Of a DNA stretch of 64,000 nucleotides, positions 10,701 through 64,000 are shown one piece after another (within the stretch, counting starts at the first letter, position 1; every line of letters starts with the position of its first letter). Below the pieces are notes generated by a model. That model was given only the letters and a program-made list of their open reading frames with translations, ran no database searches and was not told where the DNA came from. Made by a program: the position numbers and the translations under genes. The DNA lies in contig OZ245815.1 of NCBI GenBank assembly GCA_965228425.1, forward strand, positions 4,621,234 to 4,685,233, written 5' to 3'. Source of the DNA: Alphaproteobacteria bacterium. GTDB taxonomy: Bacteria > Pseudomonadota > Alphaproteobacteria > UBA8366.

Positions 10701-13094
10701 CTATTGCGCCGTCTGTATAACGCGCCAAACCTTCTCCGCCGTCACGGGCATGTCCAGACCTGCGGTGTCGCAGTCCGATAGCGCATCCAGCACGGCGTTC
10801 ATGACCGCCGGCAATGCGGCCGTCGGACCGGACTCGCCGCAGCCTTTCACGCCCAGCGGATTGGTCTTGCAGAATGTTTCGGTCTGACCCCAATCGAACA
10901 TCGGCAGATGGGTCGCGCGCGGGATGCAATAATCCATGAAGGATCCGGTCAAGAGCTGTCCGCTGTCGCCGTCGTAGAGGCAGTCTTCATACATGATCTG
11001 GCCGATACCCTGCGCGATCCCGCCATGGAGCTGCCCTTGCAGCAGCATGGGGTTGATGACGGTACCGAAATCGCTGACCAGCGTGTAACGGACCACATCG
11101 ACCAAGCCGGTTTCCTCGTCCACCTCGACCTCGGCGACATGACAGCCGCAGGGGTAACTGTAGGCTTCGGCGTTGAAGTGATAGCTCGCCTCGAGACCAA
11201 GTCCGGCGCCCGACGGCATGACCGTCTCATCGTAGGACGCACGCGCCACCTCGGCGATCCCCACCGCCTGATCCGTCCCGGCAACCCGGAACATGCCGTG
11301 ATCGAACTCGATATCCTCGGCGTTCGACTGCAACAAACGCCCCGCGATCGCTTTTCCTTGTTCGACGATGTCACGGGACGCGTGATAGATGGCGGCGCCC
11401 ATCACGGTCGCCGTGCGCGACCCGCCGGAACCGGACCCGCGACCGACCCGGTCGGTATCGCCCTGCACGACGGTGATTTCGTCGCTCGGCACGCCCAACT
11501 GGCTCGCCGCGACCTGCGCGAAGGTGGTTTCGTGGCCCTGCCCATTGGTTTGCCCCGTGGACGTCACCGTCAGGTGGCCGCTCGGATCGAACTGCAACCC
11601 GGCGCGGTTGTCCTTGAATCCGTCCGGTTCGGTGTAGACGGAGAATCCGAAGCCGAGGCGCTTCCCGGCCGCGCGCGCGGCGGCGGACCGGGCGGCGAAA
11701 CCATCGCGATCCGCCTGAACCAGCGCCGCATCCAGGTTCTCCTGAAAATCGCCGCTGTCATAGACCAGGCCCGTCGGTGTCCGGTAGGGCAGGTCTTCCT
11801 CGCGGATGAGGTTGCGCCGGCGCAGGTCCGCGGGGTCGATGCCCGTCTCGCGCGCGGCCGCATCCACCAGCCGCTCGACCATGTAGCAGAATTCCGGTTT
11901 GCCCGCGCCACGATAGGCGGCGATCGATGCTGTGTTGGTGAACACGCATTGCGTTTCGGCATAGACCTTGTCGATGCGATAGACATTGGTCAGCATCCGC
12001 GTGCCGCCGCCGGTCGGGATCACCGGCCCCGACGCGGTGAGATACGCGCCCATGTTGGAAATCGTGCGGCACCGGAGCGCCAAGAATTTGCCGTCGGCAT
12101 CCATAGCCAGCGACGCATGCATGACATGGTCGCGCGCCTGACGGTCGGTCAGGAAACTATCGTCACGATCCGCATACCATTTCACCGGCCGGCCGAGCCG
12201 CTTTGCCGCCCAGCAGACCAGGATCTGTTCCGAATAGATGTAGTTCTTGATGCCGAAGCCACCGCCGACATCCGGCGTGACCACGCGGATACTCGCGGCC
12301 GGCACGCCAAGCCCTTTTCCGGCAAGGCCCGACTGGATTGCCGTGCCGCCGCCGGTCGGCGTGTAGATCGTATAGCGGTCGCCCGCCGGGTCATGCACGC
12401 CAAGCGCGCCGCGCGGCTCCAACGCGGCGACCACGATGCGGTTATGCACCAAATCCACAGTCGTGACGTGGTGCGCCTGGGAAAAGGCGTCTTCGACGGC
12501 GGCCTTGTCGCCCATCTCCCAATCGAGGGCGACGTTCGACGGCAAGTCGTCCCAAACCTTCGGCGATTGCGGGTCCAGCGCATCGACCCCGGCGGTCACG
12601 CACGGCAATTCCTGCCAATCGACCGCGACCGCCTCCGCCGCGGCCTGGGCGGCGGCGCGGGTGTCGGCAACCACCATGGCGACGGTGTCGCCGACATGGC
12701 GCGCCTTGTCGGTCGGCATAGCGGGCTGCGGCGGATTGTGGATCGGCGTGCCATCTTTCCCGGACGGGGACGCCGGCGCCTGCATCAATCCGATCCCGTC
12801 GGCGGCGAGATCGGCCCCCGTCAGAACCGCGACGACGCCCGGCATCGATGCGGCCGCGGCGGTGTCGATACCGCCGATCCGCGCATGGCCATAGGGCGAC
12901 CGCACGAAACTCGCATGGAGTTGTCCCGCAAGGTCGATATCGTCGATGAACCGGCCTCGTCCGGTCAGCAACGCGGCATCCTCGCGGCGCGGCACCGAAG
13001 CGCCAATTCCATCGCCTGTATTGCTGGCGCCACCCGAATGCGCGCCGTTTCCACCATCCTGCATTTTGTGCTTGGTCCGGTTTTTCGGTATCAC
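10701..13094 (-). CDS. xanthine dehydrogenase/aldehyde oxidase family molybdopterin-binding large subunit
   Basis: 797 aa. The N-terminal GASVPRREDAALLTGRGRFIDD signature and the size are typical of CoxL/XdhB-like subunits. The start could instead be 13064. Confidence 0.9.
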   Translation of the reverse strand: MIPKNRTKHKMQDGGNGAHSGGASNTGDGIGASVPRREDAALLTGRGRFIDDIDLAGQLHASFVRSPYGHARIGGIDTAAAASMPGVVAVLTGADLAADGIGLMQAPASPSGKDGTPIHNPPQPAMPTDKARHVGDTVAMVVADTRAAAQAAAEAVAVDWQELPCVTAGVDALDPQSPKVWDDLPSNVALDWEMGDKAAVEDAFSQAHHVTTVDLVHNRIVVAALEPRGALGVHDPAGDRYTIYTPTGGGTAIQSGLAGKGLGVPAASIRVVTPDVGGGFGIKNYIYSEQILVCWAAKRLGRPVKWYADRDDSFLTDRQARDHVMHASLAMDADGKFLALRCRTISNMGAYLTASGPVIPTGGGTRMLTNVYRIDKVYAETQCVFTNTASIAAYRGAGKPEFCYMVERLVDAAARETGIDPADLRRRNLIREEDLPYRTPTGLVYDSGDFQENLDAALVQADRDGFAARSAAARAAGKRLGFGFSVYTEPDGFKDNRAGLQFDPSGHLTVTSTGQTNGQGHETTFAQVAASQLGVPSDEITVVQGDTDRVGRGSGSGGSRTATVMGAAIYHASRDIVEQGKAIAGRLLQSNAEDIEFDHGMFRVAGTDQAVGIAEVARASYDETVMPSGAGLGLEASYHFNAEAYSYPCGCHVAEVEVDEETGLVDVVRYTLVSDFGTVINPMLLQGQLHGGIAQGIGQIMYEDCLYDGDSGQLLTGSFMDYCIPRATHLPMFDWGQTETFCKTNPLGVKGCGESGPTAALPAVMNAVLDALSDCDTAGLDMPVTAEKVWRVIQTAQ

Positions 13095-59906: not shown

Positions 59907-59957
59907 TGGTGGGCGCGGCTGGGATTGAACCAGCGACCCCTACGATGTCAACGTAAG
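59907..59957 (-). pseudogene. 3-prime portion (about 51 nt) of a tRNA-Val(GAC) gene with no 5-prime half; probable attachment-site remnant
   Basis: The minus strand reads TTACG-TTGACAT-CGTAG (anticodon arm, anticodon GAC), GGGTC (variable), GCTGG-TTCAATC-CCAGC (T arm), CGCGCCC-A-CCA. The expected 5-prime acceptor strand GGGCGCG and a D arm are absent from the adjacent sequence, which is AT-rich instead. Confidence 0.6.
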
Positions 59958-60072
59958 GTCACCTGTTAATGTGCGTCCTGATGATCATTGCTGTTAATAA
60001 GAATATCAATACATTAAATCTCCTGTAACATATTGGTTTAATGATATTCAATCTAGTTTATTTCTGTTATTT

Positions 60073-60142
60073 GTGGGGATTGCGTGGGGTTTAAATCGCC
60101 TCTTGGAGAACAAATATGTTAGAATTCCCCACTAATCCCCAC
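60073..60142. promoter_or_regulatory. four phased copies of the heptamer GTGGGGA/T (two direct, two inverted) just upstream of int
   Basis: GTGGGGA lies at 60073-60079 and GTGGGGT at 60084-60090. TCCCCAC lies at 60126-60132 and 60136-60142. Spacing within each pair is 10-11 bp. A near copy, TCCCCAT, lies at 62141-62147 upstream of the AlpA-like gene. Confidence 0.5.
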
Positions 60143-60159
60143 TGCATATTGGACATAGC

Positions 60160-61341
60160 ATGCCGGGTGGAAGACCTAAGCGATATGCGAAGTTCGAAGA
60201 ACTCGTTGAGGCTTCGATCAAGCGCAAGACAAAGCGCCCTCTCTACCATGACAATATCGGTGTTTACCCTGGAGCACGTGGGCACACTGCGTGGGTCAAA
60301 ATAAACTTGCGCAACGGCACCACATACCGAGGGAAGTCATACCCTTCAGGTCACGCGCTCGAAATGAAGCTCGGCAAACTATCATCCTGGGACTGGAAGC
60401 AACTCGAACGAAAACGAGATGAACTTCAAGGCAAAGCCGACAGAGCAGAACCTCTCGAAGACACGAAGCCGCCGATATTCCGAGATTGGGCTAATGAATG
60501 GTTGGAAAGAGCTAAGCCGCGACTTCGGAGCTATCCGATCGTACGTGCTCACATAAAACAGCATCTCTTGCCCGAATTCGGAAATAGGGCTCTCGATTCA
60601 ATTACAGTGGGTGACGTAAATTCTTGGACTTCGAAGAAGCTCAAGGACCAGAAACCCGCAACAGTCAAACGGGAACGCGACACGCTACAAGTCATATTGA
60701 ACGAGGCCGTCCGCGAAGGGTTGATCAGTAGCAACCCATGCCAGCACGCGGTCAAGATTTCGGGGATCGTCGGCAGGCGGCGATATCTCAATGGCGAAGA
60801 GCTTACAAGTCTGCTCACGTCAGCCGAACTAGTCGCAGATTGGCTTCCGGACATAATTCGTTGGGCTGTTCATTCAGGGATGCGAAAGAGCGAAATCCTC
60901 TCACTTAGATGGGAGGACATTGCGCAATTCGAAGATGGCCGAGCCTTTGCAACCGTTACGCATAGCAAGACTGATGAGCCAAGGCTGGTGACCTGCACAA
61001 GGGAGATGAAAGAAGTACTCGAACGACAGAAGAGACGACAATCAACGAGTGGCGGTAGCATTTTTCCTGTCGCACGAATGACACTCCGCCGAAAATGGGA
61101 AAAGGCGAGAAAGGGTGCCGGACTGGAAGACGTAACAATGCATGATCTTCGTCGTACGCACAGCACACACGCAGCAGTCGCTGGTGTCGACCTTCGGACG
61201 CTTGCGTACCGCATGGGTCACAGCGATCTGACTATGTTGCAGAAACATTATGCGTCAATTGTGGGTTCCGCCTCCGTTGAAGCAGCAGAGAAAGTCCAAA
61301 GCGCATTTGACAAAATCTCTGATACCGATGGCCATGACTGA
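60160..61341 (+). CDS. int: tyrosine-type site-specific recombinase (phage integrase family)
   Basis: 393 aa. The C-terminal catalytic region has HSGMRKSEILSLRW (Arg I), HDLRRTHSTHAA (HxxR) and HSDLTMLQKHYA (His/Tyr). Confidence 0.9.
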   Translation: MPGGRPKRYAKFEELVEASIKRKTKRPLYHDNIGVYPGARGHTAWVKINLRNGTTYRGKSYPSGHALEMKLGKLSSWDWKQLERKRDELQGKADRAEPLEDTKPPIFRDWANEWLERAKPRLRSYPIVRAHIKQHLLPEFGNRALDSITVGDVNSWTSKKLKDQKPATVKRERDTLQVILNEAVREGLISSNPCQHAVKISGIVGRRRYLNGEELTSLLTSAELVADWLPDIIRWAVHSGMRKSEILSLRWEDIAQFEDGRAFATVTHSKTDEPRLVTCTREMKEVLERQKRRQSTSGGSIFPVARMTLRRKWEKARKGAGLEDVTMHDLRRTHSTHAAVAGVDLRTLAYRMGHSDLTMLQKHYASIVGSASVEAAEKVQSAFDKISDTDGHD

Positions 61342-62177: not shown

Positions 62178-62411
62178 ATGGAAATGCCACGCAACGTCGA
62201 TTCCGACTGCCTCCTCCTGAGTGATTGTCAGGTAGCCCGCATGCTCGGCTTTTCACGAAGCTGGATGCGGCAACAGCGATTCAAGAGAAAGCACAATCTT
62301 CCTCATCACTTTGATTTAGACCCAGTCTGGATTGGAACATCGCCGCGCTATCGCGTTGAAGATGTGAAGGCATGGATCGAGCGTTTAGCCACGAATGCTG
62401 CGGCTCAATAG
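62178..62411 (+). CDS. AlpA / excisionase-type helix-turn-helix protein
   Basis: 77 aa. LLLSDCQVARMLGFSRSWMRQQR...SPRYRVEDVKAWIERL follows the AlpA/HTH_17 pattern (an HTH followed by R-W/Y-x-x-x-x-V-x-x-W). Confidence 0.7.
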   Translation: MEMPRNVDSDCLLLSDCQVARMLGFSRSWMRQQRFKRKHNLPHHFDLDPVWIGTSPRYRVEDVKAWIERLATNAAAQ

Positions 62412-62419
62412 GCACCGCC

Positions 62420-63754
62420 ATGCCCTGTAACTTCATCGACGAAGATGCGTATTGGGAAGGTATATGCCTCGACGAATTGTCGGCCGAGGCTGAAGCTTAT
62501 GACTTTAAGAAATTCATAGACTTCAATCTTACCGTCCAGAATGGGGAGATGGACGCAGCCGTCTCACACCTCCTACCCATTCTTCGACAAACTGAAGCGG
62601 CACGCCGAGGGCATCTTCAAAAGACGGCGGTGGCATTACGCTTGGTGCTTGCAAACCTAATTCGGAATTTTGGGCTCCACCCAGACCTATACACCGCATA
62701 TCCAAGAAACAACGAAGGCTATCCGGATCAGCGCTATAACCCTACGAACGCAAAGCTAGTTGGCACGAAGAGAGCAGTAGATGGCCTCACTGAACTCGGG
62801 CTGATTACCAATCATACTGGATTCTATCGCCGAGATTACGGATACGGACGACTATCCCGGATGCGTGCTACGCAACAATTTTCTGAAACACTGAGAGACC
62901 GATTTGACCTCACGCCGGAACGCATAATCGCCAACCCGGACGCGGAAACTATCATCCTCCGGCAGGCTGGCAGGCCAATTCCGTATGTGGATACCGATCA
63001 AACGCATGCGATGCGAGCACAACTAGCAGATTACAACGCTCGGCTTTCGGCTGCGGATATCTCAGTCGCATTAACCCAAGATCAACACGAAGATTTCGGG
63101 CCCGAACCGGTCGATTTCGGATCCAATACCTACCGCCGGATTTTCTCTAGGGGACGGTTCGACCGAGGAGGCCGATTCTACGGTCCCTGGTGGATCAACG
63201 CGAGGCGCGCCATTCGACAACACATTCTGATCGACAATCAGCCGACAGTCGAATGCGACTACTCAGGCCAGCACCTACATATCCTCTATAGCCTTGCAGG
63301 GCTCAACTATCATCGAATCGATAACACAGGCGATCCTTACAACATGGTCGAGGCGGCAGTAGTAGATCGCGATTTCCTCAAGGTCTGCCTCCTAGTCGCT
63401 CTCAACGCCAGATCCAAAACTGGAGCACTGACCTCATTACGGAACAAGGTCCAAGGTCATCCTGAGTTGCAGGAAGTGGATTTAAGAGACCTACTATCCG
63501 GATTTGAAAGAAAGCATGAGTCAATAGCTCATCACTTTTTCTCTGATGTGGGGGTAGAGCTTCAATATCGAGACTCTTGTCTTTGTGAGTATGTGGTCAG
63601 GAGGCTAATGGAAGACGGAATTCTAGGATTAGCCATCCATGATAGCTTCATAGTCCAAAGACCGTACGAAGATAGGCTTAGAACTATCATGCAAGAGGCC
63701 TATATCCAGTATGGATATGACTCTATCCCCTCCATTCACAGCAACATTCAGTGA
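62420..63754 (+). CDS. hypothetical protein with family-A polymerase / T7-type RNA polymerase-like motif series (putative island polymerase or primase)
   Basis: 444 aa counted from the ATG at 62420; the alternative ATG at 62372 overlaps the AlpA-like gene. The motifs occur in this order: DRGGRFYGPWWIN (nt 63161-63199), ECDYSGQHLHILYSLAG (D280, nt 63257), RDFLKVCLLVALNA (R317/K321, nt 63368-63409) and LAIHDSFIV (D408, nt 63641). Confidence 0.6.
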   Translation: MPCNFIDEDAYWEGICLDELSAEAEAYDFKKFIDFNLTVQNGEMDAAVSHLLPILRQTEAARRGHLQKTAVALRLVLANLIRNFGLHPDLYTAYPRNNEGYPDQRYNPTNAKLVGTKRAVDGLTELGLITNHTGFYRRDYGYGRLSRMRATQQFSETLRDRFDLTPERIIANPDAETIILRQAGRPIPYVDTDQTHAMRAQLADYNARLSAADISVALTQDQHEDFGPEPVDFGSNTYRRIFSRGRFDRGGRFYGPWWINARRAIRQHILIDNQPTVECDYSGQHLHILYSLAGLNYHRIDNTGDPYNMVEAAVVDRDFLKVCLLVALNARSKTGALTSLRNKVQGHPELQEVDLRDLLSGFERKHESIAHHFFSDVGVELQYRDSCLCEYVVRRLMEDGILGLAIHDSFIVQRPYEDRLRTIMQEAYIQYGYDSIPSIHSNIQ

Positions 63755-63763
63755 TTAAGGCCT

Positions 63764-63838
63764 AAGGACCAAATTTCCATAGGTCAAAATGAAGGGAGAG
63801 GGGGGGATGATAACTAGGAGCAATTTTTTTTGGTCCTT
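63764..63838 (+). other. 10-bp perfect inverted repeat after the polymerase-like gene, enclosing G7 and T8 homopolymer tracts
   Basis: AAGGACCAAA (63764-63773) and TTTGGTCCTT (63829-63838) are exact reverse complements, followed by TTTGAA. The roughly 55-nt loop contains GGGGGGG and TTTTTTTT. Confidence 0.3.
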
Positions 63839-64000
63839 TTTGAATGCGTTTTGGGACGTGGTCCGCATCCCAATTTTCAGCAATTCGCCTCCTAAACCTG
63901 ATCGTTCCCCTCAAAAATAGCCAGCAATACAATTACACTGTTTCAAGATGAACAATGGGACAGGCTGGATCGCAATTAACCATCAATTTGCGTTCTATTG

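Follow-up and report, generated by a model that had tools for sequence, protein, structure and literature searches.

Introduction

Among small integrative elements, PIMEs have the gene order int/alpA/repA, in which the replicase gene follows alpA and oriV lies just downstream of repA. In PICMI the order is int/iolg/alpA/prim, where prim encodes a DUF3987/DUF5906 primase needed for replication and iolg is needed for excision (PMC10803314). For tycheposons, descriptions of related elements exist from Alpha-, Gamma- and Deltaproteobacteria (bioRxiv 10.1101/2020.12.28.424599). Here we describe an element that begins near the end of a 64,000-nucleotide (nt) stretch of an alphaproteobacterial genome (Alphaproteobacteria bacterium, assembly GCA_965228425.1, contig OZ245815.1, positions 4,621,234 to 4,685,233). 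This whole stretch is called the window below. The element and its relatives are laid out like PICMI, tycheposon and PIME modules, with integration at a specific site or tRNA gene, followed by int, a small int-overlapping gene, alpA and a replication gene, a size of a few kb to about 15 kb, and variable cargo. In the window element, the replication slot is occupied by a gene for a protein of 444 amino acids (aa), the polymerase-like protein, which is the subject of this work. Its fold is unrelated to those of the PICMI primase, the tycheposon primase/helicase and PIME RepA, and as an unrelated protein in a shared slot it looks like a non-orthologous replacement. The locus further differs from PICMI in that the gene in the replication slot has no DUF3987/DUF5906 match and in that the target is tRNA-Val, not fis. 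By analogy of position, the polymerase-like gene would be the replication module of the window element.

T7 RNA polymerase (RNAP) and mitochondrial RNAP, which are T7-type single-subunit RNA polymerases (ssRNAPs), can act at replication origins by priming DNA synthesis. The family-B polymerase of pipolins, piPolB, has been demonstrated to synthesise DNA without a primer, which is a hypothesis for the polymerase-like protein. Pipolins are larger, but resemble the present system in being small integrative elements with a stand-alone, replicative-type polymerase beside a tyrosine recombinase. The polymerase-like protein was originally noticed when the window was inspected from its letters and open reading frames (ORFs) alone (the sequence-only reading). 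Four motifs were then seen in the order that is canonical for family-A DNA polymerases (PolA) and ssRNAPs, and a minimal polymerase that primes or replicates the excised element was proposed.

Results

The polymerase-like protein is predicted to adopt a family-A right-hand fold

An AlphaFold2 (AF2) model of the polymerase-like protein, built on a 64-sequence alignment, has a predicted local distance difference test score (pLDDT) of 93.7 and a predicted template modelling score (pTM) of 0.90. When this model was compared to the PDB with Foldseek, 127 matches were obtained at E ≤ 1e-3. The top 50 were family-A DNA polymerases only, with probability 1.00 and E-values from 1.7e-6 to 3e-5, and ssRNAPs were absent from among them. 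The matched structures include the large fragments of Bst and Taq, M. smegmatis Pol1, the apicoplast polymerase and T7 DNA polymerase (DNAP), at sequence identities of 10–16%. Global TM-scores were low (0.26–0.33), and shorter structural alignments of approximately 276–330 columns had root-mean-square deviations of 6–13 Å. In BFVD, the protein's own phage homologues were matched first (best TM 0.74), and PolA DNA polymerases after them. From the GGRFY hairpin, the model proceeds through a strand to D280, a helix, a second helix at residues 317–329, a hairpin at 404–413 with the HD pair at its turn, a further helix and a C-terminal strand. We take this to be the order of the family-A palm and fingers, as judged by comparing the secondary structure of the model with the topology of Klenow. 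These data show that the 444-aa protein is predicted to fold as a family-A right-hand polymerase, in line with the sequence-only reading. An HUH Rep or classical plasmid initiator, the kind of unrelated fold that had been considered as an alternative outcome, is excluded by the family-A polymerase fold.

The N-terminal half of the protein, comprising residues 1–238, was also modelled separately (AF2, pLDDT 84). Foldseek searches of the PDB with this half gave nothing significant, with a best E of 0.1, and polymerase, thumb and exonuclease structures were absent from the top 50. The top weak matches were consistently to winged-helix proteins, namely eS10, MarR/PadR/GntR regulators, TFE-alpha, FokI and RTP, and the match to eS10 reached a TM-score on the target of about 0.6 and a probability of up to 0.90. 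A winged-helix-like module may span roughly residues 66–162, and a DNA-binding role for the N-terminal half can tentatively be suggested. The N-terminal region of about 245 aa had previously been called unrelated to anything recognisable. This holds with regard to significant matches, but has to be qualified by the weak resemblance to winged-helix modules.

Proposed active-site residues are conserved in 143 family members

The four motifs are present in the translation at the positions first reported, with spacings of 28, 37 and 87 residues (Table 1). Conservation was counted in 143 family members of 25–47% identity. The four residues whose invariance would be expected of a right-hand polymerase are retained almost without exception, with D280 and K321 found in 143/143 sequences, and R317 and D408 in 141/143. 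Such retention of the proposed catalytic Asp, Arg and Lys residues, at so low an overall identity, is characteristic of a functioning active site. The fold search and this conservation could each have spoken against the sequence-only reading, and both turned out in favour of it. In the T/DxxGR-like motif, F253 and Y254 are each found in 137/143 sequences, and GGRFY is placed on a β-hairpin of the AF2 model formed by strands 239–242 and 250–254. Near motif A, E278 (140/143) and H285 (121/143) are also retained. Further conserved residues are R240 and Y307 (142/143), D305 (140/143) and D385 (134/143).

The motif B consensus RxxxKxxxFxxxYG is not fully matched. R317 and K321 are kept, but the Phe position, going by spacing, is Leu325 (103/143), and the Tyr position is Asn329 (134/143). 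The latter lies 12 residues past R317, a spacing that would place it on Klenow Y766 and T7 RNAP Y639; the hhalign alignment described below ended short of N329. The sequence-only reading had pointed to Asn at this position, and we see that it is a property of the family. Judged by sequence, the overall motif pattern appears to be mixed: motifs A and B (DYS..., R...K) look DNA-polymerase-like, and the T/DxxGR-like motif (GRFY) and motif C (HDSF) look RNA-polymerase-like.

Profile comparisons link the family weakly to two polymerase families

Using hhalign, comparison to a profile of 23 ssRNAP sequences gave an E-value of 0.0025 and a probability of 12% over 58 columns. This alignment places IHDSF on the IHDSFGT of T7 RNAP (H811/D812) and includes the helix before motif C. 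Comparison to a PolA profile, composed of the Klenow polymerase domain and T7-like DNAPs, gave an E-value of 0.069 over 53 columns that extend from motif A through motif B, with D280 on Klenow D705, R317 on R754 and K321 on K758. The likeness of motifs A and B to Klenow and of motif C to T7 RNAP that was initially seen by eye is reproduced by hhalign. Against the single sequences of T7 RNAP and T7 DNAP, only motif C was aligned and the probability was negligible, with IHDSF placed on IHDSF and on the T7 DNAP VHDE, respectively. A search for T7 DNAP homologues returned only proteins of more than 80% identity, and so there was little gain from it. For calibration, the ssRNAP and PolA profiles, which represent known homologues, were compared to each other by the same method, giving an E-value of 0.39 and a meaningless alignment. 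As this control scored worse than the family did, the weak scores of the family are compatible with true remote homology. As the positive control failed, the profile E-values are unable to decide membership, and sequence methods are here at their limit. Weak matches that nevertheless fall exactly on the motifs are the best that could be hoped for from them.

Pfam searches were performed for the window protein and for 64 family members. The RNA_pol family (PF00940) was weakly matched by 5/64 members and was the sole recurrent meaningful Pfam family. The best match, in the member P0057, scored 20.6 bits against a cut-off of 22 bits, over 42 residues at profile positions 317–358, which is the motif C region. 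Every member scored below the gathering threshold for PF00940, and the window protein had no match to it. At a threshold as loose as E ≤ 10, DNA_pol_A (PF00476) was matched neither by the window protein nor in the family list obtained for the 64 members. Recognition by one of these two models had been put forward as a check on the motif assignment, and on this point a correction is needed: neither model detects the protein, and the best score comes from motif C of one member.

Comparison with known polymerases

With the PolA family (E. coli Pol I Klenow, Bst, Taq, the apicoplast polymerase and T7 DNAP), the polymerase-like protein has in common a predicted palm/fingers fold and the order of the motifs. 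Residue-for-residue alignment is obtained for the Asp of motif A and for the Arg and Lys of motif B, and motif C has HD. It differs in having neither a recognisable 3'-5' nor a recognisable 5'-3' exonuclease domain, and in an N-terminal half that has no PolA match. There are also differences within the motifs, with Asn in place of the Tyr766 equivalent, Leu in place of Phe762, HDS rather than HDE in motif C, and His285 where Glu710 would be expected by its offset (D705+5). With the T7-type ssRNAPs, such as T7 RNAP and mitochondrial RNAP, the protein shares an identical motif C, IHDSF, and the helix before it aligns. GGRFY resembles RGRVY, part of the DFRGRVY consensus of the ssRNAP alignment, although this likeness was seen by eye and was not aligned by hhalign. 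T7 RNAP comprises 883 aa compared to 444 aa, and its promoter-binding N-terminal domain, specificity loop and Tyr639 have no counterpart in the polymerase-like protein.

The description of the protein as about half the size of known members turned out to be overstated. The Klenow polymerase domain as used here is 409 aa long, and proteins of approximately 400 aa named DNA polymerase I are found among the phage structural matches. With about 410 aa taken up by the polymerase domain of Klenow by itself, ‘half the size’ mainly means an apparently missing exonuclease domain and compact fingers. What does remain of the claim is the compactness of the core, as the T/DxxGR-like motif and everything after it up to the C-terminus amount to approximately 205 aa. 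The protein is unusual in that it has no recognisable exonuclease domain, a palm and fingers core of only this length, and an N-terminal half that is not PolA-like.

A large family of hypothetical proteins

The sole library match of the 444-aa protein was to PHROG 4756 (phrog_4756, function unknown; E 4.3e-47). A PADLOC scan gave no match, and the PDB sequences were not matched either, whether the query was the window protein itself or the family profile. A word-indexed homologue search gave at least 470 relatives, all of which are ‘hypothetical’ and none of which has a Pfam domain. An exhaustive HMMER profile search, covering 1.84 billion cluster representatives, recovered 11,553 representatives at E ≤ 1e-3, of which 5,667 also pass E ≤ 1e-30. 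We did not find a description of this family in the literature, and nothing resembling it is contained in published censuses of family-A polymerases (PMC10201439, PMC12926913).

About one-tenth of the top family representatives (e.g. P0205, P0179, P0148, P0207 and P0241) have N-terminal extensions of 125–210 aa. Pfam domains are absent from these extensions, which could be mis-called starts or an extra domain.

An integrase and the polymerase-like gene form the core of very small elements

A scan of one genome per species gave 338 loci, mostly from Alphaproteobacteria (Pelagibacter, SAR116, Rhodobacterales, Hyphomicrobiales/Rhizobiales and Rhodospirillales), with some from Beta-, Gamma- and Deltaproteobacteria. 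Of 83 loci that were analysed, 59 have an integrase of the same cluster as the window integrase, with a median distance of 343 bp upstream of the polymerase-like gene, and no other neighbour recurs strongly. No recurrent primase, helicase or other replication gene was found among the 83 loci. In more than 40 loci, the polymerase-like gene is flanked by direct repeats of 17–146 bp that overlap a tRNA gene and bound elements of 4.0–15 kb. The tRNA genes used are those for Val, Gln, Gly, Leu, Met, Glu and others. The smallest element, at 3,987 bp (L058), comprises the polymerase-like gene, a 132-aa ORF, a gene for an XRE-type helix-turn-helix (HTH) protein and the integrase gene. Other small elements are of 4,982 bp (L014) and of 6,397 bp (L022), and in the latter a single cargo gene accompanies the integrase and polymerase-like genes. 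Otherwise, cargo differs greatly between elements. Very small tRNA-integrating elements thus have as their core the integrase and the polymerase-like gene.

In L058, the small XRE-type HTH gene (11897-12145) lies near the polymerase-like gene, with the 132-aa ORF between them. In Aeromonas phage 4L372D, an XRE-type HTH gene (L087, 6342-6623) directly adjoins the polymerase-like gene, which echoes the pairing with AlpA in the window. A neat array is found at 1340-1411 of another locus, L056, right after the stop codon of the polymerase-like gene, where TTTTCCTGA occurs four times with a spacing of 20–22 bp. With regard to the identity of the element, the PICMI primase family was excluded, as it belongs to different Pfam families, and Charybdis elements and PIMEs were set aside due to their unrelated gene content.

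Homologues are found in lytic phages including ICP1

Using tblastn with the window protein, homologues were found in 40 phage records, and with an Aeromonas phage member as query they were found in at least 286 phage genome records. The hosts are Vibrio (including that of ICP1), Rheinheimera, Aeromonas, Pseudoalteromonas and Shewanella, and the copies listed are all annotated as hypothetical. ORF100 of ICP1 is a secure member of the family (hhalign probability 99.6%, E 6e-25), and it retains the motif A Asp, the R...K...N of motif B and the HD of motif C. The homologue lies at 53–55 kb in the reference genome and at 58–61 kb in other isolates. An early theta origin of ICP1 was reported ‘near the 60kb position’, and the phage encodes a T7-like PolA and a helicase-primase but was reported to have no obvious RNA polymerase (Barth et al., bioRxiv 10.1101/639039). 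The location of the homologue near the theta origin is correlative only. Some phages, such as Aeromonas phage 2L372D and Vibrio phage PWH3a-P1, have two separate family matches per genome, which suggests paralogous copies.

A probable role in initiating replication of the excised element

The reading that we prefer, with a probability of roughly 0.55, is that the protein is an element-encoded right-hand polymerase that initiates replication of the excised element, possibly as a primase. The data themselves show the predicted fold, the near-invariance of the active-site residues, the integrase as sole recurrent neighbour, and the tRNA att boundaries with the resulting element sizes. That the protein polymerises nucleotides, starts synthesis de novo, binds an origin, yields a given product and serves in replication is what we infer here. 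The genomic context, with an integrase as the sole recurrent neighbour, tRNA-bounded elements of 4–15 kb and the slot known from PICMI and PIMEs, fits a priming or replication role and, by analogy, strengthens it. In such a mechanism, the integrase, AlpA and possibly the product of the int-overlapping ORF would excise the element as a circle. The polymerase-like protein would then bind to the element origin, with its N-terminal winged-helix-like half as the candidate DNA-binding part. The palm/fingers site would make a primer or nascent strand de novo, with D280 and D408 serving as metal ligands and R317 and K321 acting on the triphosphate, and host or helper-phage replication proteins would extend the product. 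To judge from the likeness of the T/DxxGR-like motif and motif C to their ssRNAP counterparts, the product is more likely to be a short RNA primer.

Several observations weigh against this proposal. In statistical terms the profile links are weak, at E 0.0025 for the ssRNAPs and E 0.069 for PolA, and curated models miss the protein, which has zero matches in Pfam and NCBIfam. A thumb subdomain was not identified in the secondary structure of the model, and the winged-helix matches of the N-terminal half fall short of significance, with a best E of 0.1. The conserved Tyr of motif B is replaced by Asn, and so substrate handling may differ. Iteron-like repeats downstream of the gene, as might mark an origin, were found in only 4/34 loci (L012, L023, L032 and L056), which is near chance. 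Finally, the large lytic phages already encode a PolA and a primase-helicase, and it is not obvious why they should need another priming enzyme.

It is also conceivable that the protein does more than prime, and is a self-sufficient DNA polymerase that uses deoxynucleoside triphosphates, possibly without a primer, to copy the whole circle in the manner of piPolB. RNA polymerases are missing from the top structure matches, all of which are DNA polymerases. Motifs A and B can be aligned to those of Klenow (DYS..., R...K), and the elements are only 4–15 kb in size and have no other replication gene. However, no exonuclease domain, thumb or processivity element is recognisable, a helicase is absent, and the sugar-sensing Tyr/Phe positions of PolA are Leu325 and Asn329, so we think this unlikely. 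The GRFY and IHDSF motifs are moreover the ssRNAP-like versions, and the sole Pfam signal is to RNA_pol. Another reading is a dedicated single-subunit RNA polymerase that has promoters of its own, as T7 RNAP does, and uses them to transcribe genes of the element or phage, with any effect on replication being secondary. Motif C is identical to that of T7 RNAP, the match to Pfam RNA_pol is near threshold, ICP1-like phages carry the homologue yet have no obvious RNAP, and the DNA-binding-like N-terminal domain could recognise a promoter. Nevertheless, elements of 4–5 kb with little beyond the integrase and this gene offer almost nothing to transcribe. The large N-terminal domain, specificity loop and Tyr639 of ssRNAPs are absent and the fold is closer to DNA polymerases, which makes a transcriptase quite improbable.

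Two further explanations have less to recommend them. Small integrative islands often carry defence genes, and polymerase-like defence enzymes exist in the DRT and AbiK reverse transcriptases, so that the protein might be a cargo effector, such as an anti-phage or abortive-infection enzyme that makes a nucleic-acid product. The lack of a PADLOC match, the position as a conserved core gene beside the integrase while cargo varies, and the presence of the gene in at least 286 lytic phage genome records all make this very hard to sustain. There is an equally slight chance that the polymerase fold is catalytically dead and that the protein is an initiator that only binds the origin or recruits other factors. 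In favour of this are the strong divergence of the fold, the loss of the Tyr from motif B and the fact that many initiators act by DNA binding alone, but 141–143/143 sequences keep the two catalytic Asp, the Arg and Lys of motif B and the Arg of the T/DxxGR-like motif.

Returning to an initiating polymerase as the preferred explanation, a more ambitious synthesis can be formulated, which we offer tentatively as possible but rather on the doubtful side. The family may be an unrecognised deep branch of the PolA/ssRNAP superfamily that lies between its two arms, with motifs A and B being DNA-polymerase-like and the T/DxxGR-like motif and motif C RNA-polymerase-like. Its members would be origin-specific de novo primase-polymerases. 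Each would be the only protein for replication that its element encodes, and at about 4 kb these elements, which are common in genomes of SAR11, SAR116, the Roseobacter group and rhizobia, would be the smallest known integrative elements that replicate themselves. In ICP1-like phages, the homologue would be the ‘missing’ initiating polymerase.

The family is a new and very divergent variant inside a known superfamily, and its pairing with an integrase was previously undescribed. It would add a compact, exonuclease-free branch to a well-studied superfamily, one that was overlooked in earlier censuses (PMC10201439, PMC12926913) despite its 11,553 representatives. The mixed motif signature bears on the origin of T7-type RNA polymerases from DNA polymerases. 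A two-gene core of integrase and polymerase defines tiny tRNA-integrating elements of abundant marine and soil Alphaproteobacteria, and would provide a concrete, testable replication mechanism for tycheposon-like islands. ICP1, which carries a homologue, is a tractable system for direct study. A polymerase of 440 aa with an unusual Asn at the sugar-sensing position might also be of interest to enzyme engineers.

Organisation of the element in the window

The order of features in the window is tRNA-Val half-site, int, int-overlapping ORF, AlpA gene and polymerase-like gene, and the element runs past position 64000 (Table 1). On its reverse complement, the half-site agrees without a mismatch, over 49 nt, with the tRNA-Val att repeat of L045, a related element. 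ARAGORN did not call a full tRNA at 59908-59957, and the intact tRNA-Val gene should lie beyond the window end. At 60000, the GC content drops from approximately 0.62 to 0.46–0.52.

Table 1 Features of the window element and of the ICP1 homologue. Positions are those of the window unless another record is named; residue counts refer to the 143 family members.
Feature	Position	Strand	Remarks
Partial tRNA-Val(TAC), 3' half, anticodon loop to CCA end	59908..59957	-	TGGTGGGCGCGGCTGGGATTGAACCAGCGACCCCTACGATGTCAACGTAAGG; left att repeat
Tyrosine integrase, 393 aa	60160..61341	+	Pfam Phage_integrase E 3.8e-23; phrog_1 E 2.8e-57
int-overlapping ORF, up to 273 aa	61250..62071	+	Likely start ATG 61328 or 61334
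AlpA/HTH_17-type protein, 77 aa	62178..62411	+	PF12728 E 1.5e-5, 25.6 bits vs cut-off 27
Polymerase-like gene, subject of this work	62420..63754	+	444-aa translation
N-terminal half, residues 1-238	62420..63133	+	Not recognisably PolA-like
T/DxxGR-like motif GGRFYG (R252)	63167..63184	+	G251 143/143, R252 141/143
Motif A TVECDYSGQHLHILY, contains ECDYSGQH (D280, proposed metal ligand)	63245..63289	+	D280 143/143
Motif B, O-helix equivalent RDFLKVCLLVALNA (R317, K321, N329)	63368..63409	+	
Motif C LAIHDSFIV (H407, D408)	63629..63655	+	H407, D408 each 141/143; S409 136/143
AT-richer non-coding DNA	63755..64000	.	GC 0.43 (63500-63999) vs ~0.51 in gene; cut by window end
ICP1 ORF100, 555 aa	L088 5179-6846 (HQ641347)		Among small early-type genes

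In addition to the matches given in Table 1, the integrase has Phage_int_M and SAM-like N-terminal domains in Pfam. From its likely start codons, the following ORF overlaps the int stop codon (TGA, 61339-61341) by 8–14 nt at the junction ATGGCCATGACTGAG (ATGGCCATGACTGA). It has zero matches in Pfam, PHROG, NCBIfam and PADLOC, and is likened to the iolg of PICMI by its position at the 61328-61341 junction. The HTH protein encoded next also matches phrog_66, ‘excisionase and transcriptional regulator’ (E 3.2e-5), and its sequence makes an excision regulator or excisionase likely. Both this AlpA-type gene directly before the polymerase-like gene and the ORF that encodes the 444-aa protein itself were correctly described from the sequence alone, as the ORF list, the translation and the PF12728 match confirm. 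The AlpA stop codon lies 8 nt ahead of the ATG of the polymerase-like gene. An alternative upstream ATG at 62372 would give a 40-nt overlap with the AlpA gene, but 62420 is likely the true start, because the N-termini of homologues are of the MP[YC]D type.

A scan for promoters and terminators stayed at background, Rfam gave nothing relevant, and no iterons were found in the window DNA. By the precedent of PIMEs, in which oriV lies downstream of the replicase gene, the non-coding DNA after the polymerase-like gene might speculatively be considered as the location of an origin. It contains a perfect 10-nt inverted repeat (63764-63773 / 63829-63838). Finally, the spacer between att and the integrase gene contains, at 60069-60136, inverted GGGGA/TCCCC repeats, ATTTGTGGGGA / TCCCCACTAAT, together with a second TCCCCACTG, and these could be recombinase arm sites or an integrase promoter/operator.

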